Shown here: piece after piece, positions 3-19,260 of the stretch
Position numbering within the stretch: position 1 is the stretch's first letter
How the letters are laid out: each line of letters begins with the position of its first letter
Assembly (NCBI GenBank): GCA_030740435.1
Contig: JASLXG010000066.1
Coordinates: 24,603 to 88,602, forward strand
From: Alphaproteobacteria bacterium
GTDB taxonomy: Bacteria; Pseudomonadota; Alphaproteobacteria; UBA2966
DNA length: 64,000 nucleotides
Reading direction: 5' to 3'
Notes under the pieces: model-generated
What the model was told of the DNA's origin: nothing
Seen by the model: only the letters and a program-made list of their open reading frames with translations
Databases searched by the model: none
Made by a program: the position numbers and the translations under genes

Positions 3-230
3 CACAACGGCAACTTCTTCGAACTCAGCGAAGTGGTCGAGTTCTACAACGAAGGCGGTGACCAGAACGAGTTCTCGGCCAACAAGACCAAGTTGCTCAA
101 GCCCCTCAACCTCTCGGACGAGGAGCAGGAGGACCTGGTGGCCTTCCTGGATTCCCTGAGCGGCGACGAAATCAAGATCACGTCGCCCAAGCTGCCGCCC
201 TATGCGCCGCTGCCGGCGTCGACGAATTGA
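3..230 (+). CDS. Cytochrome c peroxidase (CCP/MauG family) C-terminal fragment; the 5' end lies outside the window
   Basis: The frame starting at nt 3 translates to HNGNFFELSEVVEFYNEGGDQNEF...LNLSDEEQEDLVAFLDSL, the conserved C-terminal region of bacterial di-haem cytochrome c peroxidases. The stop is at 228-230. Confidence 0.55.
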   Translation, partial: HNGNFFELSEVVEFYNEGGDQNEFSANKTKLLKPLNLSDEEQEDLVAFLDSLSGDEIKITSPKLPPYAPLPASTN

Positions 231-244
231 GCGGGGATGCAATC

Positions 245-835
245 ATGAAAATCGAAACGCAAACTGTGATTTCCGCCCACCAGGCCCACGACATGGTGGC
301 TTCTGGGGCGGTCCACGAAGGCCACGGCAAGTGCCTGATGAGCCGGCGCCAGTTCCTGCTGACCTCGGGTGCCACCAGCGTCGTGATGGTCAGTGCCGGT
401 CCCGGCCTGGCTGCCGCGCCGGCCGTGGTGTCGGGTTATAAGCGCCAGAAGATCGCCAAGCTGAGCCAGCTCAAGACCGACCAGCCGGTCGATTTCAAAT
501 ACCCTGACCAGGGAGCCTTCTCGGAATCGATGGTGGTCAAGTTGGGCACGGAAGCCGGCGGCGGCGTCGGTCCGGGCCGCGACGTGGTGGCCTTCAACTA
601 TGCCTGCACCCATCAGGGCGGGACTTTGAGCGGCACCTACAAGGGCGACACCAAGTCGCTGGGCGCCTGCCCGCTGCACCTTTCGACCTATGACCTGACG
701 CGCCACGGCATTTTGATCTCGGGCCAGGCCTACCAGAGCCTGCCCCAGGTGCTGCTGGAGTTGAAGGGCGACGATGTTTTTGCCGTGGGCGTCTTCGGGC
801 TGATCTTCGGCCGCTACGACAATCTGTTGGGTTAG
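245..835 (+). CDS. aioB: Arsenite oxidase small subunit, Tat-exported Rieske [2Fe-2S] protein (AioB-like)
   Basis: Twin-arginine signal SRRQFLLTSGA. Rieske boxes CTH (box I) and CPLH (box II) are about 20 aa apart. It is immediately upstream of an AioA-like gene, the arrangement typical of aioBA. The start is ambiguous (TTG 227, ATG 245, 293 or 338). Confidence 0.65.
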   Translation: MKIETQTVISAHQAHDMVASGAVHEGHGKCLMSRRQFLLTSGATSVVMVSAGPGLAAAPAVVSGYKRQKIAKLSQLKTDQPVDFKYPDQGAFSESMVVKLGTEAGGGVGPGRDVVAFNYACTHQGGTLSGTYKGDTKSLGACPLHLSTYDLTRHGILISGQAYQSLPQVLLELKGDDVFAVGVFGLIFGRYDNLLG

Positions 836-848
836 GGAGCCAGGAACG

Positions 849-3521
849 ATGACAACACCCTATTACATTCCGGAAACCAACGTTCCGCTGCCGCCCAAGG
901 ACGCGGACGTCATCACCACCGCCTGCGACTACTGCATCGTGGCCTGCGGCTTCAAGGTCTACCGCTGGCCGGTGGCCGGCAACAACAAGGGTGGCCCCAA
1001 GGCCGGCCAGAACGCTTTCGGCGTCGACTTCCCGGTCTCCGCGCTGGGCGAGTGGGTGGCTCCCAACCAGCACAACATCGTGCTGCACAAGAACCAGCCC
1101 CACCACATCGTGATCATCCCCGACAAGGCCACCAAGCACGTCAACACGGATGGTGATTCGAGCCTGCGTGGCGGCTGCATCGCGCAAAAGGTCTACAATC
1201 CCCAGACGCCGACGCGCGACCGTCTGAAATCACCCTTTATGCGCATCTACGGCATCTTGCAGCCGGTGACCTGGGATTTCGCCCTCGACGTGGCGGCCGA
1301 GGTGGGGCGCCATGTCATCGCCAAGCACGGCGACAACGCCTATGGCGTCAAGACGTATTCCTACCAGTACATCGAGAACACCTACGCCATCACCAAGTTC
1401 GCGCTCCGCCACATCCGCACGGCCAACTTCACCTTCCATGATACGCCCTCGGACGTGTCGTCGACACCGGGCTTTCGCGACGCCGGCTTCGACAACTTCG
1501 GGCCGGCCTACGAAGACTGGATGAACGCCGAAACATTGTTCATGTGCGGCACCGATCCCTACGAGACCAAGACCATCCTCTTCACCCAGTGGATCATGAA
1601 GGGCATCCAGAACGGTCAGAAGGCCATCTTCATGCTGCCCCGCCGCACCGCCGGCGTTGCCTATGGCGAGAAGAACGGCGGCCTCTGGCTCGACGTAACC
1701 CCGGGCACCGACCTCCTGGTCATCAACGCCATCGCCCGCACCATCGTCGAGAACGGCTGGGAGGATTCGGAGTGGATCAAGAAGTGGGTCAACAACAAAT
1801 GGGAATCCTCCTCGGGCTTCGGCCAGGGCACGCGCAACACGCCCTGGCAGTGGCGCACCACCTGGGGCAAGTTCCAGACCAAGGGTTTCGCCGACTGGAA
1901 GAAGTGGCTCTTGAGCCGCGATGAGTTCAAGGTCGAAAACGCTTCCGCCGTCTCGGGCGTCGCCGCCAAGAAGATCCTGACCGCCGCCGAGTGGCTGGCC
2001 AAGCCCAAGAACGGCAAGCGGCCCAAGTCCTCGATCATGATCGAGAAGGGCCTTTACTGGTCCAACAACACCGGCAGCACCGAGGCCATCTCGGCGCTCG
2101 GCATTATCGTCGGGGCCGGCGGCCGGCCGGGCCAGGTCATCGGCCGGGCCGGCGGCCATCAGCGTGGCGGCCAGCGTGGCGGCAAATATCCGCGCAACAA
2201 GTCGCCCATGAAGGTGCCGGGCCGGCGCCGTCGGGCCCTGGATACCGATACCTGGACCATGGCCGGCCATACACACATGGCCCACGTCATCGGCACCACC
2301 TGGATCCAGTCCATGTGCGGCTCGCAGCAACTGGCCAAGCGCTTCCACGAACTGACGCTGGCCAACCCGCATCAGGTGCGTTCCTACGACAAGAGGGACA
2401 TCATCGAGAGTCTCAAGAAACGGGCCGATTCGGGCGGCATGGTGGTGATCAACCAGGAAATCTATCTGGTCGATCCCATCGGCAACCGTTATGCCGACAT
2501 CATCTTCCCGGCCGCCACCTGGGGCGAGGACAACTTCATGCGGGCCAACGGCGAACGCCGGCTCAGGCTCTACCAGAAGTTCTACGACGCCCCCGGCGAG
2601 GCCAAACCCGACTGGTGGATCATCGCCAACCTGGCCAAGCGCATGGGCTACGACGGCTTCGATTGGAAGAACTCCAACGACGTCGCCGAAGAGGCCTCGC
2701 GCTTCTCTCGCGGCAGCCGCAAGGACTTTCACATGGTCAAGGTGGCAGCCAAGCGCGAGGGCAAGACGCTGCACCGGAAGATGGCCGAATTCGGCACCAA
2801 CGGCATCCAGGGCCCGGTGTTCATGAACGACGACGGCTCGCTGATGGGCTGGAAGCGCTTGCATGACACCACCGCCAAACTGCCCGGTACGGGTCCGGCC
2901 GGGGCCAACGTCTTCAACAAGAAGTTGACCCACTTCAACAGCCAGACCGGCAAGTGCAACCTGCAGAAATCGCGCTGGTCGCTGTTTTCCGACTACTGGA
3001 ACTGGCTGAAGCCCAAGGGCGAGGAAATGTGGTGCACCTCGGGCCGCACCAACGAACGCTGGCAGTCGGGTTTCGACGACCGGCGCCGGCCCTACATCGT
3101 GCAGCGCTGGCCCGAGAACTATGTCGAGATGAGCCCCGAGGATGCCAAGGCCCGCGGCATCGAATCGGGAGATATGGTGATGGTCTACTCCGACCGGGTG
3201 CCCAGCCTGAAGGAAACCGTGCTCGGTGTCGAAGGCTCGGATTATTCCTTCGCCGGCCAGATGGCCAAGGGCAACGTCGAATTGACCCGGGCGGCGGTGA
3301 CCGGTGTGGCCATGGTGACGCGCCACATCAAGAAGGGCGTCCTCTATATGGACTTCCTGCACCCGGCCCAGCCGGCCAACGCGCTGGAGGGCCGCATCGT
3401 CGATTGGATCAGCGGCAATTATAATTACAAAATGGGCGTCGCCAAGGTGAAGAAGATCGGCGAATCCCCCTACAAGCGTTCCTTCCGCTCGATGTCGTTC
3501 GCGCCGCGCGATATCGTGTGA
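849..3521 (+). CDS. aioA: Arsenite oxidase large molybdopterin subunit (AioA-like, DMSO reductase superfamily), 890 aa
   Basis: The N-terminal C-X2-C-X3-C motif (TACDYCIVACGF) is typical of the AioA 3Fe-4S site rather than the 4-Cys motif of other Mo-bisPGD enzymes. Length and conserved blocks fit a molybdopterin oxidoreductase. It is paired with an upstream Rieske subunit. Confidence 0.7.
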   Translation: MTTPYYIPETNVPLPPKDADVITTACDYCIVACGFKVYRWPVAGNNKGGPKAGQNAFGVDFPVSALGEWVAPNQHNIVLHKNQPHHIVIIPDKATKHVNTDGDSSLRGGCIAQKVYNPQTPTRDRLKSPFMRIYGILQPVTWDFALDVAAEVGRHVIAKHGDNAYGVKTYSYQYIENTYAITKFALRHIRTANFTFHDTPSDVSSTPGFRDAGFDNFGPAYEDWMNAETLFMCGTDPYETKTILFTQWIMKGIQNGQKAIFMLPRRTAGVAYGEKNGGLWLDVTPGTDLLVINAIARTIVENGWEDSEWIKKWVNNKWESSSGFGQGTRNTPWQWRTTWGKFQTKGFADWKKWLLSRDEFKVENASAVSGVAAKKILTAAEWLAKPKNGKRPKSSIMIEKGLYWSNNTGSTEAISALGIIVGAGGRPGQVIGRAGGHQRGGQRGGKYPRNKSPMKVPGRRRRALDTDTWTMAGHTHMAHVIGTTWIQSMCGSQQLAKRFHELTLANPHQVRSYDKRDIIESLKKRADSGGMVVINQEIYLVDPIGNRYADIIFPAATWGEDNFMRANGERRLRLYQKFYDAPGEAKPDWWIIANLAKRMGYDGFDWKNSNDVAEEASRFSRGSRKDFHMVKVAAKREGKTLHRKMAEFGTNGIQGPVFMNDDGSLMGWKRLHDTTAKLPGTGPAGANVFNKKLTHFNSQTGKCNLQKSRWSLFSDYWNWLKPKGEEMWCTSGRTNERWQSGFDDRRRPYIVQRWPENYVEMSPEDAKARGIESGDMVMVYSDRVPSLKETVLGVEGSDYSFAGQMAKGNVELTRAAVTGVAMVTRHIKKGVLYMDFLHPAQPANALEGRIVDWISGNYNYKMGVAKVKKIGESPYKRSFRSMSFAPRDIV

Positions 3522-3607: not shown

Positions 3608-5803
3608 GTGATGAACCAGCATGACCCGCTTGCGCTCCAGCACAATGGAACGGCTGACGTCGTGGCCCTGAAGGCCAACGTCGTGGCCGCCCTGGCCGGC
3701 CTCCTGGGCCAAGGACCCGACGTGGTGCGCTGCGCCGCCGCCCGGGCCCTGGGGGTAATGGGATCCGAGGCTGCCGTCGAGCCACTGGTGGCGGCCTTGC
3801 TGGACGAGGACGAGGACGTGCGCACGGACGCCGCCGGGGCGCTGGCCCGTCTCGGCGCTGCGGCGGCCGACAAGCAGCTTCTGGAAAATTTGCTCGGCGA
3901 TCCCTGCGCCGACGTCAAGGCGGCCGCCATCCGGGCCCTGGCGGGCTCAAGGAATTCCGACGTCGTGCCTTGGCTGCGCCGCCTGGCGGCTGGCCGTGAC
4001 GAGGAGATCGCCTGGGACGAAGAGGCCTTTTTCGACCAGGACTGGGACGATTGGGTGGACTTGCAGGTGGCCGCCATCGAGGCCCTGGCCGAAATGGGCG
4101 GCACCGAGGCGGTGCCCGATATCGTCGCCGCCCTCGATGACGAATACGCCCAGGACATCACCGAGACCGCCTTCAAGGCCCTGGCGCGCCTGGGCGACGA
4201 GGGACTGACTGCGCTCTCGATCTATGCCGAGGGCGGCGACCAGCGCCTGCGCCGGCGCGCCGCGGCGGTCATGGCTACGGCCGGCGGCGAGGTGGCCGAG
4301 GCGGCGGTGGAGCGCGCGCTCGGCGATCCCGAGCCGGCCGTGCGCCTGGCCGTGGCCGAGGTGCTGGCCGCCAAGGCGGCCGCCGATCCCCGGCTCGAGG
4401 CTTTGCTCGGCGATGCCGATCCCGGGCTGCGCGCCATCGCGGCCGTGCGCTGGGGGGAGCACCACCCGGCCGGCCTGAGGCCGCTTTTCGAGGACCGCTC
4501 GGCCGCCGTGCGAACGGCTGCTTTCGCCGCCCTGGCGGCAGCCCCGGCCACTCCCGACGACGAAGGCCTGGCAGATCTCTTGCACCGTAACTTGGCGGCG
4601 ACGCCGGACCAGGTGCCGGCGGCCGCGGCCCAGGCCCTGGCGGCGCACTTCGGACAGGCGGCGCTCGATGACTTGGCGGCGCTGCTGGCGGACCGGTCCC
4701 GTGGACCGGAAGTGCGGCTGGGCGCGTTGCGTGGCCTTGGCCGTCTGGGCCTGGCGGCGGTGCCCGCGCTGAGCGGGCAATTGGCCGATGACGAACGCCA
4801 GATCCGCCTCGAAGCCATGACGGCGCTGGCCGGCGTCGCCAAGGCCGAGAGCTGGCCCAACGCCGCCGGCGAGAGCCTGCTGGCGGCCTTGCGCGGCGAG
4901 ATGGTGGCTGAGCCCGAGCCGGAACCAGAGGCCGAACCCGAGCCGGAACCAGAGCCCGAGCCCGAGCCCGACGAATCAGCCTTCCCGGAATCGACGCTGG
5001 CGGCCATCCTGGGCCCCGAATCGCCGCTGCTGGAAGCCCATGGCGAGGTCCGCGGTGGTGCCGAACTGGGTCCCGATGATTTGGAATTCCTCGGCTTGGC
5101 CCGCGAGGCCCGGCAGGCCGGCGGCAAGAAGCGGGTGCCGCTGGTGCCCGATGTGGCGACCCACCAGGACGTGCCGCGCTTTGCCGCCAACCTGCTCGGC
5201 GATATCGCCCGTGACGAAGTGGCGTTGGCGCTGACGCAAGCTCTGCCGGCCGCCGACCGCGAGTTGCGCATCGAGGCGGCGCGATCGTTGGGCCGCATCG
5301 GTGAGGTGCTGGGCGAGCTGCCCGAGGGGGCATTCGAGGCCCTGGCGGCGCTCAGCCAGGATCGTGAGCGCGATCTCAAGCTGGCCGCCGTGCGCAGCCT
5401 GGGCCTGGCTCCGCTGGCGCTGGCTGAGCCCTTGCTGCGGGCCGGACTCGAGGACGAGGACGGTTTCGTGCGCCGCGAGGCGGTCTCCGCCCTGGCCCGG
5501 CTGGGCCCCGTCGACGGTGCCGTCGACGCCCTTTTGCACGACAACGAGCCCGGCGTGCGCCTGGCCGTGGCGGAGGCGCTTTGCGCCTCGGGCCGCGAGG
5601 ACGCCCTGGCCCTGCTGATGGATTTCGCCTTTGCCTTCGGCGGCGCCCAGCGCCGCGAGGCCGGGCGGCTGCTGCGCCGCCTCGACGCCCCGGCCGCCAA
5701 TGCCCGGCTGTTGCAGGTGCTCGAAGACGAAAGCCGCGAGCCGGTCTGGCAGGTGGCCATCGAGATGCTGGAGGAAATCAATGCTTCCGTGGCGGGTGGA
5801 TAG
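3608..5803 (+). CDS. HEAT-repeat (PBS-lyase-like) protein, 731 aa, no signal peptide
   Basis: It contains many repeats of the form AAxALGxxG...AVxPLxxxLxDxDxxVRxxAAxAL, typical of HEAT/PBS-lyase repeats, and is Ala/Leu-rich. It also has an acidic (EP)n linker. Confidence 0.65.
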   Translation: MMNQHDPLALQHNGTADVVALKANVVAALAGLLGQGPDVVRCAAARALGVMGSEAAVEPLVAALLDEDEDVRTDAAGALARLGAAAADKQLLENLLGDPCADVKAAAIRALAGSRNSDVVPWLRRLAAGRDEEIAWDEEAFFDQDWDDWVDLQVAAIEALAEMGGTEAVPDIVAALDDEYAQDITETAFKALARLGDEGLTALSIYAEGGDQRLRRRAAAVMATAGGEVAEAAVERALGDPEPAVRLAVAEVLAAKAAADPRLEALLGDADPGLRAIAAVRWGEHHPAGLRPLFEDRSAAVRTAAFAALAAAPATPDDEGLADLLHRNLAATPDQVPAAAAQALAAHFGQAALDDLAALLADRSRGPEVRLGALRGLGRLGLAAVPALSGQLADDERQIRLEAMTALAGVAKAESWPNAAGESLLAALRGEMVAEPEPEPEAEPEPEPEPEPEPDESAFPESTLAAILGPESPLLEAHGEVRGGAELGPDDLEFLGLAREARQAGGKKRVPLVPDVATHQDVPRFAANLLGDIARDEVALALTQALPAADRELRIEAARSLGRIGEVLGELPEGAFEALAALSQDRERDLKLAAVRSLGLAPLALAEPLLRAGLEDEDGFVRREAVSALARLGPVDGAVDALLHDNEPGVRLAVAEALCASGREDALALLMDFAFAFGGAQRREAGRLLRRLDAPAANARLLQVLEDESREPVWQVAIEMLEEINASVAGG
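4908..4972 (+). repeat. Tandem DNA repeat of gagcccgagccggaaccagag-like units encoding an (EP)n low-complexity linker (AEPEPEPEAEPEPEPEPEPEPDE) inside the HEAT-repeat protein
   Basis: The direct repeat is visible in the sequence at about 4908-4972. Confidence 0.6.
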
Positions 5804-5841
5804 GGAGGCAAACGAACGATGCCAATGAGGAGAGGATGACA

Positions 5842-6618: not shown

Positions 6619-6649
6619 CGGCGCCGGACGGGTGCGAGCGGAGAGGACC

Positions 6650-12391: not shown

Positions 12392-13054
12392 ATGAGAATA
12401 ATTTTTGCCTCATCTTTGGCGCTGGCGCTGAGCCTGGCCGCAAGTGGTCCGGCCCGGGCTGATGCGGCGGCCGGCAAGGCCGCCTTCGCGGCCCAGAAAT
12501 GCGAGGGCTGCCATTACACCGAAGGGCCGGCCAGGGAGAAGTCGATCGACGATCAGTTGGCCAAGAAGGGGCCTGAGCTGTGGTACGCCGGTTCCAAGTT
12601 CCAGGCGCCCTGGCTCGAGGCCTGGCTGCAAAAACCCGATGCCATCCGGCCGCTGAAGTACAACACGCTCGAACAAGAGAACCCCGGCGACCATCCCAAG
12701 CTTTCGGGCGGCGATGCCAAGAACGTCGCCGCTTTCCTCATGAGCCTGACCTCGGACGCTGTCAAGGCGGGCAAGGTCAAGGCCAAGAGGAACGCCAAGG
12801 GGCGCCTGATTTTCTCCAAGAAAATGCCCTGTTCCGGTTGCCACTCCTCCATCGGCCGCAAGAAGAAAGTCGGCGGCGGGCGTTCCGGCCCGACCCTGGT
12901 CGGGGCCGGCCAGCGCCTCAACCCGGACTGGATCCTGGCCTATCTCAAGACGCCCGACGTCTTCAAGCCGATCAAGGCCATGCCCGTGTTCGCCGGTATC
13001 CTGGGCGACAAGGACATGCTCAACCTGGCCCGCCACGTGGCCAGCTTCAAGTAG
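12392..13054 (+). CDS. Di-haem cytochrome c with two CcoO/NorC-like haem domains (module 1 only)
   Basis: Signal peptide. Haem motifs CEGCH and CSGCH. Each is followed by a GPxL...G....W...LxxP......MP block resembling the cbb3 CcoO / NorC haem domain. Confidence 0.7.
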   Translation: MRIIFASSLALALSLAASGPARADAAAGKAAFAAQKCEGCHYTEGPAREKSIDDQLAKKGPELWYAGSKFQAPWLEAWLQKPDAIRPLKYNTLEQENPGDHPKLSGGDAKNVAAFLMSLTSDAVKAGKVKAKRNAKGRLIFSKKMPCSGCHSSIGRKKKVGGGRSGPTLVGAGQRLNPDWILAYLKTPDVFKPIKAMPVFAGILGDKDMLNLARHVASFK

Positions 13055-13074: not shown

Positions 13075-13443
13075 ATGAAAAGATTGACCACCGCCGCTGC
13101 CTTCTGCACCCTGGCGTTTGCCCTGGCCGTTCCTTCGGCCCAGGCCGCCGATGCCAAGAAGGTCTACAACTTCTATTGCGCCCAGTGCCACGGCACCGCC
13201 GGCAAAGGCAAGGGACCCAACGTCACCAAGGACTTTCCCGTCAGCCCGCGCGACTTCACCAATGCCGCCGAGATGGACAAGCTCTCGGACGCCGACATGA
13301 AGAACGTGATTCTGGATGGCGGTCCGGCGGCCTCCAAGTCGCCCATGATGCCGCCCTGGTCCAAGACCCTGAAGGGCGACGAGGTTGACGCTCTGGTCGG
13401 CTACCTGCGCAAGTTCTGCGGCTGCAAGGGCAAGCAAGGCTAG
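13075..13443 (+). CDS. Periplasmic mono-haem cytochrome c, 122 aa (module 1 only)
   Basis: The RBS gggagga precedes the ATG at 13075. Signal peptide MKRLTTAAAFCTLAFALAVPSAQA. CAQCHG motif. Confidence 0.7.
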   Translation: MKRLTTAAAFCTLAFALAVPSAQAADAKKVYNFYCAQCHGTAGKGKGPNVTKDFPVSPRDFTNAAEMDKLSDADMKNVILDGGPAASKSPMMPPWSKTLKGDEVDALVGYLRKFCGCKGKQG

Positions 13444-13531
13444 TAAGGCGCCCGGTGCCGCCGGGGAGGCGGCGCCGCTTCGTTTCAATTTTGGGAGAAG
13501 GGAGCCGCCGCGGTCTTGGACACTGCGGCCT

Positions 13532-13723: not shown

Positions 13724-13846
13724 ATGACGATGACTGAAAACAACGGTGCAACAGGCAGTGGATCAGCCAACGCCTGGGCCGGTCCGGCCCTCTTTACGGT
13801 CGTTGCCGTGGTCATGCTGGTCTTCTTCTATTGGTTCCTGTCCTAG
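13724..13846 (+). CDS. Candidate 40-aa single-TM peptide (MTMTENNGATGSGSANAWAGPALFTVVAVVMLVFFYWFLS)
   Basis: Hand-translated ORF on the cluster strand upstream of cydA-like 2. The RBS is weak. Confidence 0.25.
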   Translation: MTMTENNGATGSGSANAWAGPALFTVVAVVMLVFFYWFLS

Positions 13847-13897
13847 AGTCAAGGCAGCCTGCAGGGGGGCACAAATGAATAATCCGAGGGATTGCTC

Positions 13898-14014
13898 ATG
13901 AAGGACTACGTGGTGCCCTTTGTGGCGGCGTTCGTGGTGTGGGGTCTCCTCTTTCTCGGTCTCGACGTGGTGATCATGAACGCCCAGGGACTGAACCTGA
14001 TCTATCAGCCGTAG
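13898..14014 (+). CDS. Candidate 38-aa single-TM peptide (MKDYVVPFVAAFVVWGLLFLGLDVVIMNAQGLNLIYQP), 10 nt upstream of cydA-like 2
   Basis: Hand-translated ORF. The RBS gaggg lies 7 nt upstream of the ATG. In size and position it looks like a CydX-like small subunit. Confidence 0.3.
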   Translation: MKDYVVPFVAAFVVWGLLFLGLDVVIMNAQGLNLIYQP

Positions 14015-14023: not shown

Positions 14024-15880
14024 GTGACGCACAGCAAGGTTTTGACCGCCTGGCGCCCCTGGGTGCTGGCGGCTCTGGTGGCGACGCTGTTGCTGGCCCT
14101 GGTGCCGCTGCTGGGCAGCGCCCTGGATATCGCGTCGCCGGCCCTGGCGGCCGAAGGCGAGGCGGCGGCGGCGGCAAGCGGCGAGCAGGCGGCGGCCCCG
14201 GCCGGCCCGACCATCGCGCCGCCCAAACTGAAGAGCACCGACTATCCGGTTGTGGCCGGCGTCAACGGACGCATCTTCGTCTGGCTGGCGGCGCAATTGC
14301 ACCTCTGGTTCGCGGCCTTCGTGCTGGCCGTGCCGATCTTCGTCTTCATCATCGAAGCCATCGGCATGTACAGCCGCGACCAACGCTACGACAACATGGC
14401 CTACGAGTTCATCAAGGTCAGCATCACCGCCTATTCCCTGACCGCCATCCTGGGTGGCCTGTTGGCCATCGGCCTGATCGTTTTCTACCCGCACCTCTTC
14501 CAGTACATGTCCGGCGTCTTCAAGGAATCGATGGTCTGGTATGCGGTGCTGTTCTTCGCCGAAAGCGCCTGCCTTTACATCTATTACTACGGCTGGCACT
14601 GGCTGCAGGGCGGCTTCCGCAAGTGGGTTCATCTGACGCTGGGGCTGGTGCTGAATGGCGTCGGCACGACGCTGATGTTCCTGGCCAACGCCTGGCTCAC
14701 CTTCCAGATGAGCCCGGCCGGCGTCGATGCCGCCGGCCTCTATTCCGGCGACGTCTGGGCCGCCATCCACAATCCCTTGTGGAACCCCATCAACCTGCAC
14801 CGCATGATCGCCAACGTCGCCTACGGCGGCTCGGTGGTCGGCGCCTATGCCGCCTTCCGGTTTCTCTCGTCGCGCACGGCCGAGCTCAGGGCGCATTACG
14901 ACTGGATGGGCTACACCGCCAACTTCATCGCCATCAGCGCGCTCTTGCCGCTGCCCTTCGCCGGCTACTACCTGACGGCCGAGATCTACGCCTACAGCCA
15001 GCAGATGGGCATCACCCTGATGGGCGGCGTCTTCGCCTGGCTCTTCATCATCCAGGCGGTGCTGATCGGCACGCTGTTCCTCTCGGCCAACTATTATCTC
15101 TGGTGCGGCATGGGGCGCAGCGACGGGGCGCCGCGTTACAACCCCTATATCAAGTACATAGCCTTCGGTCTGGTGGCCTCGTTCCTGGTCTGGTTCACGC
15201 CCCACACCCTGGTGCTGACGAACGAGGAACTGAAGGCTCTGGGCGGGCCCTACCACAAGTACCTGGGGCCGCTGGGCATCATGCCGGCCAAGAACACGGC
15301 CGTGAACTACATGATCATCCTGACGGCGCTGAGTTTCCTGATTTACCGCCGCGCCAACAAGATCCCGACGGTAAGCTGGGTCAAGATCGGCAATGCCGTG
15401 CAGGTGGCCATGTTCACGGCCGCCGTCGTCAACATCCTTATCCTGGGCGTCTACCACGGCTACTTCACCAACACCGTCTACAAGGTGGCGAGCTCGATCC
15501 CCCAGGTGTTGACGACGCTGGTGGTGATCTTCGTCAGTACGCTCATCGACGTCTTCATGTACCGCGGCGCCAAGGACGTGGCGCCGCTGCATTGGGGCCG
15601 ATTGCCCGAACGCGCCCAGTACGCGCTCTTCCTGCTGGCCGTCTCGTTCACCTGGCTGATGGGCCTGATGGGCTACATCCGCTCGGGCATCCGCCAGCAC
15701 TGGCACGTGGTCGGCATCTTCCGCGACAACTCGGCCGACGCCTTCACGCCGACCCTGGCGGGCGGTGCCAATATCGTCTCTGTGGGGGTCATCATCTTCC
15801 TGGTGATGGTCATCTTCGTCTTCTGGGTCAGCCAGATCAGCGGCCGCAAGACCGAAGTGGCCGGATACTGGAGGACCTAG
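14024..15880 (+). CDS. Cytochrome bd subunit I (CydA)-like membrane protein, module 2, 618 aa with a signal peptide and an Ala-rich periplasmic N-terminal extension; no cydB
   Basis: AAQLHLWFAAFVLAVPIFVFIIEAIGM (His19-equivalent). FFAESACLYIYYYGW. PINLHRMIANVAYGGSVVGAYAA (His186-equivalent). About 55% identical to the module 1 paralog over conserved blocks. GTG start per the ORF track. Confidence 0.7.
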   Translation: MTHSKVLTAWRPWVLAALVATLLLALVPLLGSALDIASPALAAEGEAAAAASGEQAAAPAGPTIAPPKLKSTDYPVVAGVNGRIFVWLAAQLHLWFAAFVLAVPIFVFIIEAIGMYSRDQRYDNMAYEFIKVSITAYSLTAILGGLLAIGLIVFYPHLFQYMSGVFKESMVWYAVLFFAESACLYIYYYGWHWLQGGFRKWVHLTLGLVLNGVGTTLMFLANAWLTFQMSPAGVDAAGLYSGDVWAAIHNPLWNPINLHRMIANVAYGGSVVGAYAAFRFLSSRTAELRAHYDWMGYTANFIAISALLPLPFAGYYLTAEIYAYSQQMGITLMGGVFAWLFIIQAVLIGTLFLSANYYLWCGMGRSDGAPRYNPYIKYIAFGLVASFLVWFTPHTLVLTNEELKALGGPYHKYLGPLGIMPAKNTAVNYMIILTALSFLIYRRANKIPTVSWVKIGNAVQVAMFTAAVVNILILGVYHGYFTNTVYKVASSIPQVLTTLVVIFVSTLIDVFMYRGAKDVAPLHWGRLPERAQYALFLLAVSFTWLMGLMGYIRSGIRQHWHVVGIFRDNSADAFTPTLAGGANIVSVGVIIFLVMVIFVFWVSQISGRKTEVAGYWRT

Positions 15881-15883
15881 GCG

Positions 15884-16702
15884 ATGATGAACTTCCTCAA
15901 GGTGGCCCTCTTCTCGCTGGTCGTCATCGGCTTTTTCGCGGGCTATTCCAACTGGGGCATCCCGCAGATCGAGCCGGCGGCGCCGCCGGTGGAAGAAGTG
16001 CTCGATCTGGGCGCCATGACCATGGACGACTTCATCGCGCTGGGCGGCAAGATCTACAACGGCAAGGGCACCTGCACGCTCTGCCACAATGCCGTCGGCG
16101 GCCGGGCGCCCATGCTCGATACCGCCGCCGGCCTGGTTGCCGAACGCCTCAAGGACGCCCGCTACAAGGGCGAGGCCAGCGACGCCGAGGGCTATCTGCT
16201 GGAATCGCTGGTCAATCCCTCGGCCTTCGTGGTGGCGGGCTTCGGCAAGAAGGGGACAGCCGATGCCGAAAGCCCGATGCCCGACGTCTCGGGCGGCTCG
16301 GTGGGCTTGAGCGAGGTCGAACTGGCGGCCGTGGTGGCCTTCCTGCAGGATCTCGGCGGCACCGATGTGACGGTGGAGATCCCCTCGGGCGCCCAGGCCT
16401 CCGACGAAAGCGGCGACGAGGAGGGCGAGCCCCGGGCGGCCTACGCCTCGATCGAGGAACTGATCGCCGAGCAGTCCTGCGGCGCCTGCCACAAGGTGGC
16501 CGGCGAGGAAGGCGACGTTGGTCCGGACCTCAACGGCATCGGCGCCAAGTACGATCGCGACTACCTGCGCCGTTCCATCCTCGATCCCAATGCCGACATC
16601 GGCCAGGGCTTCGAGGCCGACACCATGCCGGCGGAATACGGCACCACCCTCTATGCCCAGGAACTCGAAATGCTGATCGACTACCTGGCCAAACTGAAAT
16701 GA
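15884..16702 (+). CDS. Membrane-anchored di-haem cytochrome c (module 2)
   Basis: N-terminal TM helix. Haem motifs CTLCH and CGACH. GPDLNGIGAKYDRDYLRRSILDP motif. It is a paralog of the gene at 8769-9746. Confidence 0.75.
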   Translation: MMNFLKVALFSLVVIGFFAGYSNWGIPQIEPAAPPVEEVLDLGAMTMDDFIALGGKIYNGKGTCTLCHNAVGGRAPMLDTAAGLVAERLKDARYKGEASDAEGYLLESLVNPSAFVVAGFGKKGTADAESPMPDVSGGSVGLSEVELAAVVAFLQDLGGTDVTVEIPSGAQASDESGDEEGEPRAAYASIEELIAEQSCGACHKVAGEEGDVGPDLNGIGAKYDRDYLRRSILDPNADIGQGFEADTMPAEYGTTLYAQELEMLIDYLAKLK

Positions 16703-16715
16703 GCAGGGGCGCGGC

Positions 16716-17483
16716 ATGAAAATTCCCAGGCTCCTGCTGTCGGTCATCACCGTCCTGGTCTTCTACGCCGCCTTCGAGGTGGTCTTCGGGCTGATCCTCG
16801 GGCAGCCCATCCCGGCCAGCCTGATGACCATGTACATGTTCTTCGTGGTTGCCGGCGTCTTCATGACGTTTACCTTCACCGAGGAAGGCGGCCGCGAGAT
16901 GGTGGCGCCGATCAAGGCGCTGGTCGAGGATCCCTCCAAACGCATGGTGCGCAACGTCGTCTTCGTCATCGTGCCGCTGCTGGCCGGTGGCCTGACGTAT
17001 TGGCAGATGCAGCCCTCCTTCGAGGCGCCGCTGGAGCTGCGTTCGATCCATCCGGCACCGCCCTCGAGCGCCAAGATCTACGGCAAGCGCTACGATCTGC
17101 TGACGCTGGAGAACCCGTTGCGCAAGTTCGAGAAGGAGGATCCCGAGAAGTTCCGCGAATTGGTGGCGGCGGGCGCCACGGTCTACATCGAGAACTGCCA
17201 GTACTGCCACGGCGACAAGCTCGATGGCCAGGGGCCCTACGCCCAGGGCCTCAATCCGGTGCCGCTCAACTTCCAGGACATCGGCACCATCGCCCAGCTT
17301 CAGGAATCCTACCTCTTTTGGCGCATTGCCACGGGCGGGCCGGGCCTGCCCAGCGAAGCCTCGCCCTGGCTCTCGTCGATGCCGGTGTGGCAGAGCTTCC
17401 TCAAGGAAGAAGAAATCTGGCAGGTCATCCTTTTCCTTTACGACTACACCGGCCACCGGCCGCGCTCATGGGAGCATGAATGA
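16716..17483 (+). CDS. Membrane-bound mono-haem cytochrome c (module 2)
   Basis: Three N-terminal TM helices. CQYCHGD motif. ...YLFWRIATGGPGLPSEASPW... It is a paralog of the gene at 9753-10718. Confidence 0.7.
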   Translation: MKIPRLLLSVITVLVFYAAFEVVFGLILGQPIPASLMTMYMFFVVAGVFMTFTFTEEGGREMVAPIKALVEDPSKRMVRNVVFVIVPLLAGGLTYWQMQPSFEAPLELRSIHPAPPSSAKIYGKRYDLLTLENPLRKFEKEDPEKFRELVAAGATVYIENCQYCHGDKLDGQGPYAQGLNPVPLNFQDIGTIAQLQESYLFWRIATGGPGLPSEASPWLSSMPVWQSFLKEEEIWQVILFLYDYTGHRPRSWEHE

Positions 17484-19024
17484 TGGCTGCGGTGACGATG
17501 GATAAAGTGCTGCGGGCGCTGGGCGCCGGTATCGTGCTGGCCGCTCTTTCGGCGGGTGCCGCCCTGGCCGTGCCGGGCAATGCCGAGAAGGGCGAAAAGG
17601 TCTACCAGTTCCGCTGCCTGGCCTGCCACGGCGACGAAGGCGACGGCCTGGGCCCGGCTGCCGAGCGCCTCAACCCGCCGCCTCGGGACTTTACGCTGGG
17701 GATTTATAAGATCAAGACCAGCGCCTTTGACGAAGACGCGCCCAACGACGACGACATCTTCCGCATGATCAAGGACGGCATGCCCGGAACCGCCATGCCG
17801 GGCTGGTCGGACGTGCTCAGCGAGCAGGACATGTGGGACCTGGTGGCCTATCTCAAGGTCTTCGCCGAGATCGAGGAGGCGCCGGAGGGCCAGATCGACT
17901 ACGGCAAGCAGATCGAAAGCTCGGCCGACAGCATCGCCCGTGGGCGTGAAATTTTCCTCGATGGCGAGCGCTGCTCCGAATGCCACGGCCGTGAAGGCCG
18001 CGGTGACGGCATCAAGAAGCTCAAGGACGACAACGGCGCCCGCACCTGGCCCAGGAACCTCACCAAGGCCTGGACCTATCGCGCCGACAACAGCGCCAAG
18101 GAGATCTTCCGCCGCGTCACGGTGGGTATTCCCGGCACCCAGATGCCGGCCTTCGCCGATCCCAAGTCGAAAAAGAAACTGAGCATCGAGGAACGCTGGC
18201 ACGTGGCCAACTATGTGGCCTCGCTGGCCAAGACGGTGGAGGTCGTCAATCCCTCCAAGACGGTGATCGTGGCGGCCAAGCTCGAGGGCGCGCTGCCGGC
18301 CAAGGTCGACGACCCGAAATGGGCCGAGGCGGCGCCCGTGACCTTCATGCTGGTGCCCCAGATCATCGCCGAGGACAGGTTCTTCACGCCGGCCCACGAC
18401 AGCATCACCGCCCGCGCCTTCTATAACGACGAAGCGATCGCCATGCTGCTGGAATGGGACGACCGCACCAAGTCCTTGCCCGGGGACGACAAGGCGGCCC
18501 AGATCGCGGACGAGGAGCTGAGCTCCGACATGGTGGCCGTGCAACTGCCGGTGACGATTCCCATAAGCCAGGAGAAGCCCTATTTCCTGATGGGCGACAA
18601 ATCCCATCCCGTGAACTTCTGGCGCTGGTCCAGCGGCGGCAAGGAGGCGTCCCAGGGCGTCGAGTTGATGAACGCCACCGGGCCCTACGAGTTCGCCGAA
18701 CGCGACGCCGCCAAGACTGGTCTCACGGCCAGCGGCAGCTACAAGGACGGCACCTGGCGGGTAGTCATGACCCGGCCCTTGCGCACCGATGATGCCGAGG
18801 GCGACCTGCAGTTCGAGGAGGGCCGCTTCATCCCCGTGGCCTTCGCCAACTGGGACGGCTCCAACAGCGAAAGCGAAACCAGCCACACCCTGACGACCTG
18901 GTACTGGCTGCTGCTCGAGCCGCCGACGGGGACGCGGCCCCTGATCACGGCCCTGATCGTAGTGCTGCTGCTGGCGGCGGCCGAGATCTGGTGGGCGCGT
19001 AGCGCCCGTGGGTCCGATGCATGA
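17480..19024 (+). CDS. Di-haem cytochrome c fused to an EB_dh/DOMON-like domain with a C-terminal TM anchor (module 2)
   Basis: Signal peptide. Haem motifs CLACHG and CSECHG. EB_dh-like block (WDDRTKSLPGDD...AVQLPV...HPVNFWRWSSGG...WRVVMTRPLRTDD). Terminal helix LITALIVVLLLAAAEIWW. It overlaps the upstream gene by 4 nt. Confidence 0.65.
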   Translation: MMAAVTMDKVLRALGAGIVLAALSAGAALAVPGNAEKGEKVYQFRCLACHGDEGDGLGPAAERLNPPPRDFTLGIYKIKTSAFDEDAPNDDDIFRMIKDGMPGTAMPGWSDVLSEQDMWDLVAYLKVFAEIEEAPEGQIDYGKQIESSADSIARGREIFLDGERCSECHGREGRGDGIKKLKDDNGARTWPRNLTKAWTYRADNSAKEIFRRVTVGIPGTQMPAFADPKSKKKLSIEERWHVANYVASLAKTVEVVNPSKTVIVAAKLEGALPAKVDDPKWAEAAPVTFMLVPQIIAEDRFFTPAHDSITARAFYNDEAIAMLLEWDDRTKSLPGDDKAAQIADEELSSDMVAVQLPVTIPISQEKPYFLMGDKSHPVNFWRWSSGGKEASQGVELMNATGPYEFAERDAAKTGLTASGSYKDGTWRVVMTRPLRTDDAEGDLQFEEGRFIPVAFANWDGSNSESETSHTLTTWYWLLLEPPTGTRPLITALIVVLLLAAAEIWWARSARGSDA

Positions 19025-19260
19025 CGCCGAACCCGGCGGCTGACGACGAGGAGTTACGGGACGAGGAACCGGTCCGCGGCGTCAAGACGCGTATGATCGG
19101 CGCCGGCTTGATCTTTCTCGGCGTTCTCGACAGTCTGCTCAGTTGGCGGGGCGGTTTCGAGCCCAGCCTGTTTCATTGGTTTCTGATTGCCGCCGGCATA
19201 CTGGTTTTTGCCATCGGCGCGATCCGGCAGAGGCGGGACGCCGGGTCTCCGTCACCCTAG
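19021..19260 (+). CDS. Small two-TM membrane protein (79 aa), translationally coupled to the preceding cytochrome
   Basis: Its ATG overlaps the cytochrome stop (gcATGA). Two hydrophobic helices (MIGAGLIFLGVLDSLL and WFLIAAGILVFAIGAI). Confidence 0.4.
   Translation: MTPNPAADDEELRDEEPVRGVKTRMIGAGLIFLGVLDSLLSWRGGFEPSLFHWFLIAAGILVFAIGAIRQRRDAGSPSP

Follow-up and report, generated by a model that had tools for sequence, protein, structure and literature searches.

Gene content and organization of the cluster

We analysed a 64,000-nucleotide stretch of DNA (the window) from an uncultured marine alphaproteobacterium, probably an inhabitant of an oxygen-deficient zone. Positions 3-19260 hold 18 genes, all on the forward strand and supported by GC3 (Table 1). 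The preliminary description had counted seventeen; the shared direction stands, and recounting returned its eight cytochromes with 13 CxxCH sites, two CydA-like proteins and two EB_dh domains. The Pfam check that it had proposed gave matches to Rieske, Rieske_3, Molybdopterin, HEAT_2, Cyt_bd_oxida_I, Cytochrom_C and EB_dh. The cluster begins upstream of the window, as seen on identical contigs, and its 3' end lies at about 23637, so that a trio of tetrapyrrole enzymes lengthens it to about 23.6 kb.

Intergenic spacing is -4 to +86 bp (4-86 bp from idrA up to and including module 1), with two exceptions in the first gene calling: 280 bp past 13443 and 162 bp past 19024, the latter occupied by the ORF at 19021-19260. 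The 280-bp gap, the sole long one, comes directly after the sole strong terminator-like hairpin, both this hairpin and the tight spacing having been recorded in the preliminary description. The hairpin sets module 2 apart from the unit formed by idr and module 1 and, judging from its structure and position, probably marks a boundary between two transcription units; terminator-like matches overall were not above expectation (14 versus 13.0 expected from shuffling). Identical proteins in the same arrangement occur in six independent assemblies (L001-L006), and the arrangement recurs in dozens of related genomes. Hence, an assembly chimera, a concern raised earlier, is ruled out.

Table 1. Features of the cluster and its 3' extension, in window coordinates
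Feature	Position	Strand	Evidence
Dihaem cytochrome c peroxidase (CCP), second of two (idrP2-like), C-terminal 75 aa	3-230	+	weak NCBIfam MauG/MbnH C-terminal matches
IdrB-like Rieske [2Fe-2S] small subunit, twin-arginine signal	227-835	+	Pfam Rieske; TIGR02694 arsenite_ox_S 115 bits
IdrA-like molybdopterin catalytic subunit, N-terminal 3Fe-4S domain, 890 aa, 100.0 kDa	849-3521	+	Pfam Rieske_3, Molybdopterin, Molydop_binding
Cytoplasmic HEAT-repeat protein, 731 aa, acidic Pro-Glu repeat linker	3608-5803	+	Pfam HEAT_2 182 bits, 8 stretches
Secreted three-domain beta-sandwich protein, predicted type-1 copper site	5839-6618	+	cupredoxin-like middle domain flanked by transthyretin-like domains
CydA-like membrane protein 1, OR-N2 type by sequence, 704 aa	6650-8764	+	Pfam Cyt_bd_oxida_I 40.2 bits, N-terminal 117 profile positions only
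Module 1 TM-anchored dihaem c	8769-9746	+	CxxCH, Pfam Cytochrom_C, hydropathy
Module 1 3-TM monohaem c	9753-10718	+	CxxCH, Pfam Cytochrom_C, hydropathy
Module 1 dihaem c + EB_dh haem b domain, C-terminal TM anchor	10718-12337	+	CxxCH, Pfam EB_dh, hydropathy
Soluble periplasmic dihaem c	12392-13054	+	signal peptide, CxxCH, Pfam
Soluble periplasmic monohaem c	13078-13443	+	signal peptide, CxxCH, Pfam
Terminator-like GC-rich hairpin, then T-rich tail	13453-13477	+	stem of 10 pairs, 9 GC
Two 40-aa single-TM ORFs directly 5' of CydA-like 2	13724-13846, 13892-14014	+	tblastn conservation
CydA-like membrane protein 2, OR-N2 type by sequence, 618 aa	14024-15880	+	Pfam Cyt_bd_oxida_I 53.3 bits, N-terminal part only
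Module 2 dihaem c	15884-16702	+	CxxCH, Pfam
Module 2 3-TM monohaem c	16716-17483	+	CxxCH, Pfam, hydropathy
Module 2 dihaem c + EB_dh, C-terminal TM anchor	17480-19024	+	CxxCH, Pfam, hydropathy
Conserved 79-aa two-TM ORF, overlapping the EB_dh gene stop codon	19021-19260	+	translation
Usp + 2x PCP_red	19268-20944	+	Pfam
AhbD/NirJ2-like radical SAM/SPASM + PCP_red	20958-22250	+	Pfam
HemY-type protoporphyrinogen-oxidase-like flavoprotein	22165-23637	+	TIGR00562 220.4 bits (cut-off 97.85)

The Rieske/molybdopterin pair and its peroxidases

The window opens within a peroxidase gene, the remainder of which lies upstream. On L001-L006 the Rieske gene is preceded by a HAMP histidine kinase, a sigma54 response regulator and two complete CCP_MauG genes (372 and 379 aa). 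This is the idrP1P2BA layout, and synteny with two CCP genes is the criterion used by Reyes-Umana et al. (PMC8692401) to tell idr from aio. The idr-type locus on an Azonexus plasmid has the same gene order. The NT-26 aio locus differs: it carries aioX but lacks a CCP, while the present locus has two CCPs and no aioX was seen in it. The Mo subunit shares 66-78% identity with proteins of the marine Idr clade, 49% with its Azonexus counterpart and 31% with NT-26 AioA (30-32% with bona fide AioA proteins), with a bimodal identity distribution, in comparisons (identity matrix, tblastn against plasmids and genome scan) that leave out the experimentally verified proteins of Pseudomonas SCT, Denitromonas IR-12 and R. 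azorensis. Its homologues in species listed as IdrA carriers by Reyes-Umana et al., who include Photobacterium proteolyticum and Roseibium (Labrenzia) album, are 70% (L086) and 76% (P0100, Roseibium album) identical, and its mass compares with 99.4 kDa in R. azorensis. The Rieske subunit is kept beside it at 51-80% identity in nearly all loci; its TAT_signal match is weak and under the Pfam cut-off, and an internal ATG may be the true start.

The pair had initially been read as aioBA within a possibly arsenite-linked chain. Indeed, the Mo subunit exceeds the TIGR02693 cut-off (400.9 versus 359 bits), the Rieske subunit exceeds that of TIGR02694, public annotations all name the Mo protein arsenite oxidase or arsenate reductase (azurin), and three of the four AioA substrate-site residues are kept. 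However, the fourth, Glu203, is replaced by Ser, and together with the low identity to AioA and the two upstream CCPs this led us to reject an AioBA identity: judged by sequence and synteny, the pair is IdrBA, the iodate reductase type, with iodate as its predicted substrate. Grouping of the Mo subunit outside Aio had been named in the preliminary description as a result that would refute its reading, and this is where the subunit falls. The marine 'aioA-like' clade has likewise been reassigned to IdrA in the literature. Low O2 is required for both the induction and the activity of Idr; R. azorensis reduces iodate and its idr genes are iodate-induced; and IdrA protein peaks in the lowest-O2 water, having been detected only in the lowest-O2 bin in the ETNP ODZ.

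Two CydB-less bd-like modules

Both CydA-like proteins match Cyt_bd_oxida_I above its cut-off (26.2 bits), as the preliminary description had expected. Each module combines such a CydA homologue, with ~14 TM segments, and three cytochromes: a membrane-anchored dihaem c, a monohaem c with 3 TM segments, and a dihaem c to which an EbdC-like haem b domain is fused. No CydB is encoded within the window; the earlier statement that bd operons always pair cydA with cydB fails, since OR-N, OR-C and cydAA', families defined in 2021, have no CydB. In the OR-N2 type of operon described by Murali et al., a 14-TM CydA is accompanied by several cytochromes c and an EbdC-like subunit, and the present modules are of this type, equivalent to TO_1 of Nitrospirota. 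The 41-46% identity between the two CydA-like proteins is in line with the ~40% similarity that the same authors gave for cydA genes of OR-N1 and OR-N2 type sharing an operon.

The OR-N2 signature comprises His56, Tyr136, Glu143, Tyr150, Tyr152, His224 and His280 in CydA-like 1, and His93, Tyr173, Glu180, Tyr187, Tyr189, His203, His259, Met420/Asn424, Ser554 and Trp560 in CydA-like 2, with spacings in the latter that equal the OR-N2 reference within a few residues. Both proteins lack the Q-loop, and OR-N is defined by the absence of this and other quinol-site features. They retain haem ligands of the His19 and His186/Met393 types and a channel residue of the Glu107 type. Two canonical CydA residues have changed, Glu99 to Tyr and Glu445 to Ser, so that catalysis may follow a different chemistry. 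CydA-like 2 shows weak sequence matches to the CydA chains of 9r2g and 5doq over its first ~230 residues, and its AF2 model (pLDDT 51.6) is unusable. By these residues, both proteins belong to the OR-N2 family, a known but biochemically uncharacterised kind. To our knowledge, no OR-N enzyme has been biochemically characterised, and O2 reduction by OR-N2 is hence an assumption from Nitrospirota genomics. A new kind of bd-like complex was rejected on the signature residues and the OR-N2/TO_1 operon make-up.

The module 1 cytochromes (8769-12337) match TIGR03477 DMSO_red_II_gam (110.8 bits). The two soluble cytochromes c downstream of module 1 are kept there in many loci and are candidate electron shuttles. 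The paired 40-aa ORFs, possible small subunits on the strength of their tblastn conservation, occupy the same position in alpha-, beta- and gammaproteobacterial loci (L007, L008, L038, L044, L048, L087-L090), with 38-aa genes called there in L088-L090. The 79-aa ORF has counterparts of 43-50% identity at the same position in L087-L090.

Linkage of idr and OR-N2 modules across genomes

Of 80 species-level genomes that encode a close IdrA, 39 have an OR-N2 module adjoining idr; where the contig runs on for 9 kb or more in each direction, a CydA-like gene lies next to idr in 20 of 39 loci. The linkage takes two gene orders and is found in Alphaproteobacteria, Gammaproteobacteria and SAR324, and also on one betaproteobacterial contig. 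The contigs of three close homologues of CydA-like 2 were looked up (in Beta-, Alpha- and Gammaproteobacteria), and all show the modules in the same order; the Mo gene can be seen only on the betaproteobacterial contig, and a HEAT gene on the alphaproteobacterial one. About half of the close idr loci have no modules within 10 kb; among these are the loci of all the cultured strains and long-contig genomes that were examined (Ruegeria, Rhodovibrionaceae A322, Photobacterium). Hence, the modules are accessory and not required for iodate reduction.

The HEAT gene lies directly 3' of idrA in most marine-subclade loci that reach past idrA, including cultured strains and the long-contig genomes L071, L095 and L096, whereas neither the Azonexus nor the Thiothrix idr-type locus has it. 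Its product, which lacks a signal peptide, is a companion of idrA in the marine subclade rather than of the OR-N2 modules. The predicted cupredoxin-like protein, probably a blue-copper protein, and the tetrapyrrole-enzyme trio travel with the modules, the trio in both gene orders and missing from idr-only loci. The trio, which also matches TIGR04545 (292.9 bits) and TIGR04055 (288.9 bits), both under their own cut-offs, possibly supplies or modifies haem.

The core of the preliminary description, a Mo/Rieske enzyme of AioBA type joined to two multi-cytochrome modules of the CydB-less bd-like kind, is thus a conserved, co-directional cluster. The undescribed respiratory complex that it had suggested is new only in part: the modules are a known type, and we did not find their linkage to idr in the literature searched. 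This coupling, the new element here, appears undescribed, CydB-less bd-like modules having so far been discussed mainly for nitrite and manganese oxidisers.

Proposed function and alternatives

We posit, at somewhat better than even confidence, that the cluster is an extended iodate-reduction island in which cytochromes c and/or the cupredoxin-like protein feed Idr, the peroxidases and the OR-N2 oxidases from bc1. The window also encodes a canonical bc1 (34682-37266), 15 kb away. An oxidase role for the modules is suggested by the kept haem ligands and channel residue, the missing Q-loop and CydB, this bc1 and the low-O2 activity of Idr. An opposite role, as quinol:cytochrome c oxidoreductases forming an alternative complex III on a bd scaffold and feeding IdrAB and the peroxidases, would make the cluster a self-contained quinol-to-iodate chain. 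The modules do lie between idr and the soluble cytochromes c and are rich in periplasm-facing haem c, two paralogues could split roles, and Murali et al. suggested quinol use for some OR-N subfamilies, though via pet genes. However, the cluster has no pet-like or ACIII-like quinol module, the defining absence in OR-N is that of quinol-site features, bc1 is nearby, a simple dehydrogenase would not need the His19-type active-site ligand and Glu107-type residue, and idr-only genomes do without the modules; we regard this role as unlikely.

Co-location without direct electron exchange, with Idr and the OR-N2 oxidases as separate low-oxygen options on one mobile or co-regulated island, would agree with the horizontal transfer of idrABP1P2 and its poorly conserved surroundings, with the half of close idr loci that lack modules, and with the hairpin and 280-bp gap that set off module 2, a point against our preferred island model. 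The recurrence of the association in two gene orders across Alpha-, Beta- and Gammaproteobacteria and SAR324, the shared module order around all three CydA-like 2 homologues (one with a visible Mo gene) and the 4-86 bp junctions from idrA through module 1 make it rather improbable. An oxidative chain modelled on NXR and the bd-like oxidase of Nitrospira, in which OR-N2 receives, by way of cytochromes c, the electrons that an Idr-like enzyme takes from iodide or from a different donor of high potential, draws on OR-N complexes being typical of organisms that oxidise nitrite, Mn(II) and similar high-potential donors, on the presence of both oxidising and reducing enzymes in the AioA/IdrA family, and on the EbdC-like haem b, described as an electron-receiving subunit. 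We consider it very improbable given the 66-78% homologues in listed idr species, among them the iodate-reducing R. azorensis, the IdrA peak in lowest-O2 water, and the two peroxidases, which suit a reductive model; moreover, the potential of the first step, iodide to HOI, is very high by the standards of a Mo(VI/IV) centre. An arsenite oxidase wired to a new bd-like chain is hardly credible: the family models, annotations and shared substrate residues that favour it are set against the low AioA identity, the lost Glu203, the CCP synteny and the reassigned marine clade.

In the iodate-reduction island that we favour, bc1 would oxidise quinol, and soluble cytochromes c and/or the cupredoxin-like protein would share out periplasmic electrons to three sinks. 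TAT-exported IdrB and the Mo/3Fe-4S IdrA would reduce IO3- in the periplasm, and IdrP1P2 would clear oxidants formed as by-products, such as peroxide. As cytochrome-c-dependent terminal oxidases working at low O2, the two OR-N2 complexes would consume O2 that is present in traces or arises as a by-product, and possibly peroxide too, at the membrane. Such O2 removal would both protect the O2-sensitive Idr and conserve energy under micro-oxic conditions.

Gene content and integrity of the cluster

Since the G+C content of the window (61-74%) makes raw ORF lists noisy, genes were chosen by third-position GC (GC3), which left a single clean series of plus-strand genes from base 3 to about 23.6 kb, and their content was called by Pfam and NCBIfam scans (see table). 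These scans bore out the gene content that the preliminary description had assigned to 3-19260 and, with the addition of three small conserved membrane ORFs, bring the gene total to 18. The cluster carries 13 CxxCH motifs spread over eight proteins. Neighbouring genes are separated by -4 to +86 bp. The one exception is a 280-bp gap that follows 13443, at the start of which lies the only strong terminator-like hairpin (13453-13477).

Features of the cluster in window coordinates
Position	Strand	Feature	Called by	Remarks
3-230	+	C-terminus of MauG/CCP-type dihaem peroxidase	Pfam/NCBIfam	last 75 aa
227-835	+	TAT-Rieske protein	Pfam/NCBIfam	
849-3521	+	Mo subunit with Rieske_3 3Fe-4S domain	Pfam/NCBIfam	890 aa
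3608-5803	+	HEAT-repeat protein	Pfam/NCBIfam	731 aa
5839-6618	+	Secreted beta-sandwich protein		
6650-8764	+	CydA-like protein 1		704 aa; next come a dihaem c with a TM anchor, a monohaem c with three TM helices, and a dihaem c-EB_dh fusion with C-terminal anchor
12392-13054 and 13078-13443	+	Two soluble cytochromes c		
13724-13846 and 13892-14014	+	Two membrane ORFs		40 aa and one TM helix each; positionally conserved
14024-15880	+	CydA-like protein 2		618 aa; followed by the same three companion types as CydA-like 1, to 19024
19021-19260	+	Membrane ORF		79 aa, two TM helices; positionally conserved
19268-23637	+	Trio of tetrapyrrole-related genes		Usp + two PCP_red; AhbD/NirJ2-like radical SAM/SPASM + PCP_red; HemY-type protoporphyrinogen-oxidase-like flavoprotein

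The exact Mo protein is present on at least 23 contigs, and the six that were fetched (L001-L006, from marine metagenomes and MAGs) have an identical gene order. On these, the region upstream of the window encodes a HAMP histidine kinase (HK), a sigma54 response regulator, and two complete CCP_MauG peroxidases, followed by the Rieske gene. An assembly chimera is ruled out by this identical arrangement on six assemblies and by its presence in many genomes. Elsewhere in the window, genes for a DUF58 protein and a 923-aa BatA/DUF4159 protein of the aerotolerance-operon type lie at 42137-45796 (+).

The Mo/Rieske pair is of the iodate reductase type

The Mo/Rieske pair had been taken for an arsenite oxidase, AioBA. 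It matches the Pfam models Rieske, Rieske_3, Molybdopterin, and Molydop_binding, with a weak TAT_signal match under the Pfam cut-off. Among solved structures, the best matches of the Mo subunit are AioA/AroA (220-270 bits, roughly 30% identity), and it passes TIGR02693 marginally (400.9 against a cut-off of 359), a model that does not discriminate Idr. In tblastn searches against plasmids, its identities were bimodal: genuine arsenite oxidisers, among them NT-26, NT-25, Thermus, and Nitrobacter, formed a low group at 26-30%, and Vibrio (66%), Azonexus, and Thiothrix (both 48%) a separate high one. An identity matrix gave the same picture, the Mo subunit falling with the Idr proteins of the marine clade (66-78%) and not in the Aio clade (30-32% to NT-26 AioA); its identity to the idr-type locus of an Azonexus plasmid, which is of the Rhodocyclales type, is 49%. 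In this matrix, of eight sequences, the members of a marine subclade (window, Ruegeria, Photobacterium, Vibrio, and SAR324) are 66-79% identical to each other, a Rhodocyclales/Thiothrix subclade is 47-52% identical to them, and both subclades are 30-32% identical to AioA. Photobacterium proteolyticum and Labrenzia (now Roseibium) album, whose proteins (L086 and P0100) are respectively 70% and 76% identical to the Mo subunit of the window, are both included in the list of IdrA carriers in the supplement of PMC8692401. The calculated mass of the Mo subunit is 100.0 kDa, compared with 99.4 kDa for IdrA of R. azorensis (WP_093034476.1). With regard to the AioA substrate-site residues His195, Glu203, Arg419, and His423, the two histidines and the arginine are kept, and Glu203 is replaced by Ser.

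Reyes-Umana et al. (PMC8692401) distinguished idrA from aioA by synteny, that is, by peroxidases as against none, and state that the marine 'aioA-like' genes of oxygen minimum zones are IdrA. Two genes for dihaem cytochrome c peroxidases (CCP) adjoin idrBA on L001-L006 and in nearly all related loci. The Azonexus locus, with the order HK, sigma54 regulator, CCP, CCP, small subunit, large subunit, cytochrome c, and moaA, has the architecture of the window's contig, whereas the NT-26 locus reads aioX-aioS-aioR-aioB-aioA-cytC-moeA and codes for no peroxidase. Next to the HK/sigma54 pair on the contigs identical to the window, we found no aioX-type binding protein and instead the two CCP genes. 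Grouped by the identity matrix, the Mo/Rieske pair is Idr-type and not Aio-type, and is a predicted iodate reductase; the arsenite assignment is contradicted by the low identity to NT-26 AioA, the Glu203 to Ser replacement, the two CCP genes, and the lack of aioX. The pair retains several similarities to AioBA of Pseudorhizobium banfieldiae NT-26, namely a Rieske small subunit encoded ahead of a 3Fe-4S/Mo large subunit and the same kind of regulator pair, but differs from that system (aioXSR, cytC, moeA) in its 31% identity, the non-conserved Glu203, the presence of peroxidases, and the absence of aioX. In substrate and in the direction of electron transfer, it is probably the opposite of AioBA. 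In the public annotations covered (P0001-P0120, P0121-P0240), the names seen for the Idr clade are all 'arsenite oxidase / arsenate reductase (azurin) large subunit'.

Islands of the idrABP1P2 type are known from Pseudomonas sp. SCT, Denitromonas sp. IR-12, and Roseovarius azorensis (Yamazaki 2020; Reyes-Umana 2021, PMC8692401; Kine 2024, PMC11445184). The cluster shares with these the Mo/3Fe-4S and TAT-Rieske subunits with two dihaem peroxidases ahead of them, and with the Azonexus plasmid locus the HK and sigma54 regulator upstream. Unlike the described islands, which comprise four genes with a cytochrome c and moaA or moeA nearby, idr is followed in the window by genes for the HEAT protein, a cupredoxin-like protein, two modules built on CydA-like proteins, and the tetrapyrrole trio.

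The CydA-like proteins belong to the OR-N2 subfamily

Both CydA-like ORFs, as the preliminary description had proposed, match the Cyt_bd_oxida_I model above threshold, with 40.2 bits for CydA-like 1 (profile positions 3-117 of 418) and 53.3 bits for CydA-like 2 (positions 3-231 of 418), and thus over its N-terminal third to half only; CydA chains in the PDB align with just the first ~230 residues. No match to the CydB model Cyt_bd_oxida_II was found among the scanned GC3-supported ORFs of the 64-kb window (the 121-aa ORF at 29749-30114 excepted), and no Pfam or PDB match reaches the Q-loop region. The H186-M393 spacing is ~160 residues, as in the OR-N2 reference, compared with 207 in the Escherichia coli CydA, and the canonical Glu99 and Glu445 are replaced by Tyr and Ser, respectively. 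A canonical CydAB quinol oxidase is ruled out by the lack of CydB in the window, the lack of a Q-loop, and the replacement of Glu99 and Glu445. What is shared with CydAB(X) is homology over the first four to five helices, the His19-, His186-, and Met393-type ligands, the Glu107-type residue, and small single-TM companions that recall CydX/CydS; in addition to the above differences, there are probably about 5 extra helices.

Families of the bd superfamily that possess neither CydB nor a quinol site were defined by Murali, Gennis & Hemp (2021) as OR-C and OR-N, so the premise that cydA always pairs with cydB is outdated. Within these, OR-N2 is described as having a 14-TM CydA, whose operons also encode several cytochromes c together with an EbdC homologue, and its signature consists of H99, Y183, E190, Y197, Y199, H213, H269, M430/N434, S563, and W569 (Murali Supplementary Table 6). 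CydA-like 2 displays H93, Y173, E180, Y187, Y189, H203, H259, M420/N424, S554, and W560, with spacings within a few residues of the reference, and CydA-like 1 displays H56, Y136, E143, Y150, Y152, H224, and H280; wherever a signature residue was checked in both proteins, it showed no variation between the paralogues or among 28 homologues aligned with them. The two proteins are 41-46% identical to each other, and Murali et al. report roughly 40% similarity between OR-N1- and OR-N2-type cydA of one operon. Hydropathy indicates 11-18 TM segments, and an AF2 model of CydA-like 2, built on a 30-sequence alignment, has ~13-14 long helices by a rough count; its confidence is low (pLDDT 51.6, pTM 0.41), too poor for a fold search or inspection of the haem pocket. 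NCBIfam has no model for the CydA-like proteins or the beta-sandwich protein.

As judged from their sequences, both CydA-like proteins are members of OR-N2. Modules 1 and 2 of the window equal the 'TO_1' complex of Nitrospirota, in which a bd-like oxidase is joined by two cytochromes c and one periplasmic cytochrome b; they are hence of a known kind, albeit one biochemically uncharacterised, O2 reduction by OR-N enzymes being inferred from genomics and expression only (OR-N/TO_1 literature including Murali et al.). Like the OR-N2/TO_1 complexes of Nitrospira and Ca. Manganitrophus, they are built on a CydA homologue that lacks a Q-loop, has no CydB partner, probably has ~14 TM helices, and carries the same set of signature residues (His, Tyr-x6-Glu, Tyr-x-Tyr, His, His, Met/Asn, Ser, Trp); the operon likewise encodes an EbdC-like periplasmic haem b protein next to several cytochromes c. 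They differ from those in their hosts, which are Proteobacteria and SAR324 of marine low-oxygen water, and in the fusion of the EbdC-like domain with a dihaem c and its C-terminal anchor. Further differences are the tandem pair of paralogous modules, the additional small TM subunits, and the physical link with an Aio/Idr-type Mo enzyme. The electron donor of the modules is presumably cytochrome c rather than quinol.

The anammox NXR gene cluster also includes genes for a bd-like membrane protein, for cytochromes c, and for subunits of the EB_dh type. It resembles the present cluster in that a periplasmic Mo enzyme is encoded beside a bd-like membrane protein and carriers with haem b or c, but NXR is a type II DMSOR, the enzyme here is of the Aio/Idr type, and the hosts differ.

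In the public annotations covered, OR-N2 proteins are named 'cytochrome ubiquinol oxidase subunit I'. The CydA-like proteins have further invariant histidines (H394, H411, and H561 in the numbering of CydA-like 2), and a gene for a SCO1/SenC copper chaperone lies after or between OR-N2 modules on one betaproteobacterial and one alphaproteobacterial contig (L087, 14988-15605; L088, 9245-9886). These genes and the extra histidines hint at a copper requirement.

Linkage of idr and OR-N2 modules across genomes

One genome per species was scanned for relatives of the Mo subunit, yielding 80 loci at 69-87% identity, onto which all proteins of the window were mapped. The order idrP1P2-B-A is essentially universal among them, and the gene for the HEAT protein lies 3' of idrA in most marine-subclade loci that extend past it. 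CydA-like genes stand beside idr in 39 of the 80 loci, and in 20 of the 39 loci with at least 9 kb on both sides. Two arrangements recur. One of them reads idr, HEAT, beta-sandwich, module 1, c2x/c1x, and module 2, and occurs in Rhodospirillaceae-like MAGs of marine origin (Saanich Inlet, Arabian Sea, and Caspian Sea among others), with a reduced form in a SAR324 MAG. The other reads module 2, idr, HEAT, beta-sandwich, Usp-PCP_red, rSAM, and HemY-like, and is found in MAGs of Rhodobacteraceae, Sneathiellales, and Hyphomicrobiales; loci of Thiotrichaceae, Motiliproteus, and other Gammaproteobacteria have module 2 directly 5' of idr without the downstream genes of this second arrangement. Conversely, all three close homologues of CydA-like 2 that were looked up (Beta-, Alpha-, and Gammaproteobacteria) are on contigs with the same module order, a Mo gene being in view only on the betaproteobacterial contig and a HEAT gene on the alphaproteobacterial one; an SCO1/SenC copper chaperone is also encoded on some of these contigs.

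The loci examined from cultured strains or long-contig genomes (Ruegeria spp., Rhodovibrionaceae A322, one 4.9-Mb contig genome, Kiloniella, Photobacterium, and Vibrio THAF190c) have no modules and only idrP1P2BA with or without HEAT, which indicates that the modules are accessory. Reyes-Umana et al. (PMC8692401) found the surroundings of idr to be poorly conserved, and our literature search returned no report of a bd-type component beside idr or an iodate reductase. The linkage of idr to OR-N2 modules is real and conserved, and apparently undescribed. We regard the cluster as an idr island of about 25 kb that has been extended by OR-N2 modules. Of the interpretation put forward in the preliminary description, it is this conserved and apparently undescribed linkage that stands; the arsenite assignment and the novelty claimed for CydB-less bd proteins do not.

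The idr locus of Ruegeria intermedia (L071) has an extra stand-alone bc1-type Rieske gene (PetA-like; 3800-4348) and a PAS hybrid histidine kinase gene (4746-6962) upstream, and moeA (15432-16823) downstream; these extra genes imply that its regulation of idr differs from that by the HAMP-HK/sigma54 pair on the window's contig.

Accessory proteins

In the beta-sandwich protein, the one referred to here as cupredoxin-like, His142, Cys189, His192, and Met195 (C-x2-H-x2-M) are invariant across 49 locus-derived and 30 database homologues, and agree with the type-1 copper ligand set His...Cys-x(n)-His-x(n)-Met, with the spacing of amicyanin. A PDB sequence search with this protein gave no meaningful match. 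Azurin is a known partner of Aio and is also part of that enzyme's EC name; by analogy, the beta-sandwich protein is plausibly a blue-copper carrier for IdrAB. A divergent paralogue (34% identity) with the same His/Cys/His/Met set is encoded upstream of the window on the identical contigs (L001, 2513-3250, -), and is transcribed divergently from the HK/sigma54 regulator pair.

The HEAT protein of the window has an acidic Glu-Pro repeat linker, EPEPEPEAEPEPEPEPEPEPD. Its gene follows idrA in marine-subclade loci, including the cultured or long-contig loci L071, L095, and L096, and is absent from the idr-type loci of Azonexus and Thiothrix, which have genes for a cytochrome c and moaA in its place. 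The small membrane ORFs flanking module 2 are conserved in position across alpha-, beta-, and gammaproteobacterial loci and are reminiscent of CydX/CydS.

Within the trio, the AhbD/NirJ2-like radical SAM protein scores below all NCBIfam equivalog cut-offs, and the HemY-type flavoprotein matches TIGR00562 with 220 bits against a cut-off of 98. The trio accompanies the OR-N2 modules in both gene orders and is missing from idr-only loci. That it tracks the modules rather than idr alone suggests a role in haem supply or modification for the haem-rich complexes, and hints that it may be a dedicated haem pathway for the bd-like oxidases.

Possible modes of electron transfer

All the cytochrome domains lie in or face the periplasm, and so do IdrAB, IdrP1P2, and the cupredoxin-like protein. 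A canonical bc1 operon (petABC; 34682-37266, -), coding for a Rieske protein with a UCR TAT signal, cytochrome b, and cytochrome c1, is found 15 kb downstream. In our preferred model, electrons would pass from quinol through bc1 to the soluble cytochromes c or the cupredoxin, and from there branch to IdrAB, with iodate as acceptor, and to IdrP1P2, acting on peroxide or another oxidant. A third branch would lead via the EbdC-like and c-type subunits to the haems of the CydA-like proteins and on to O2. To this last step, the reduction of O2 by the OR-N2 modules, we give about an even chance. The model fits the retention of His19-type and His/Met b558-type ligands and of the Glu107-type channel residue with the quinol site absent, as well as the precedent of the Nitrospirota. 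It also fits what is known of the Idr system: low O2 is needed both for the induction of idr and for Idr activity, the enzyme appears to be O2-sensitive, the IdrA protein is confined to the lowest-O2 water, and O2 and H2O2 arise during iodate reduction in the Yamazaki model.

Several other readings of the same genes have to be weighed. The modules might be input devices carrying electrons from quinol to cytochrome c; the bc1 operon in the window indicates that the organism already has a quinol:cytochrome c oxidoreductase, and we consider this reading unlikely. The OR-N2 complexes might instead be membrane-bound reductases of an iodine or oxygen intermediate (HOI, IO2-, H2O2) that complete iodate respiration, a role that we regard as rather improbable. 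We think it similarly improbable that idr and the modules are co-located without coupling. An oxidative chain, in which the Idr-like Mo enzyme would convert I- to IO3- and pass electrons via cytochromes c and the EbdC-like haem b to the OR-N2 oxidases, would mirror the coupling of NXR to bd-like oxidases in Nitrospira; it appears very improbable here. Arsenite oxidation by the Mo enzyme, with the identity matrix and synteny against it, we consider about as improbable.

Conclusions

In metaproteomes of Pacific oxygen-deficient zones, IdrA (formerly 'AioA-like') is reported to be about as abundant as oxidative DsrA, and this implies a significant role for iodate as electron acceptor in those waters. 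The published model of iodate respiration involves four genes along with generic bc1 and cytochrome c; we find that many uncultured marine carriers of Idr, including Saanich Inlet, Arabian Sea, and Caspian Sea MAGs, encode a far larger conserved unit. Its extra components offer testable ideas on the wiring of iodate respiration and on its coexistence with traces of O2. If the oxidative reading were true, the cluster would be a candidate for the long-sought biological oxidation of iodide in the ocean. Metabolic reconstructions based on marine MAGs will probably be misled by the current public names of IdrA and of the CydA-like proteins.

The cluster also places OR-N2 bd-like oxidases in Proteobacteria beside a defined partner enzyme, and this idr-linked setting may be more tractable for their first biochemical characterisation. 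Our findings bear on iodine cycling in oxygen-deficient zones and provide a handle on the uncharacterised OR-N oxidases.
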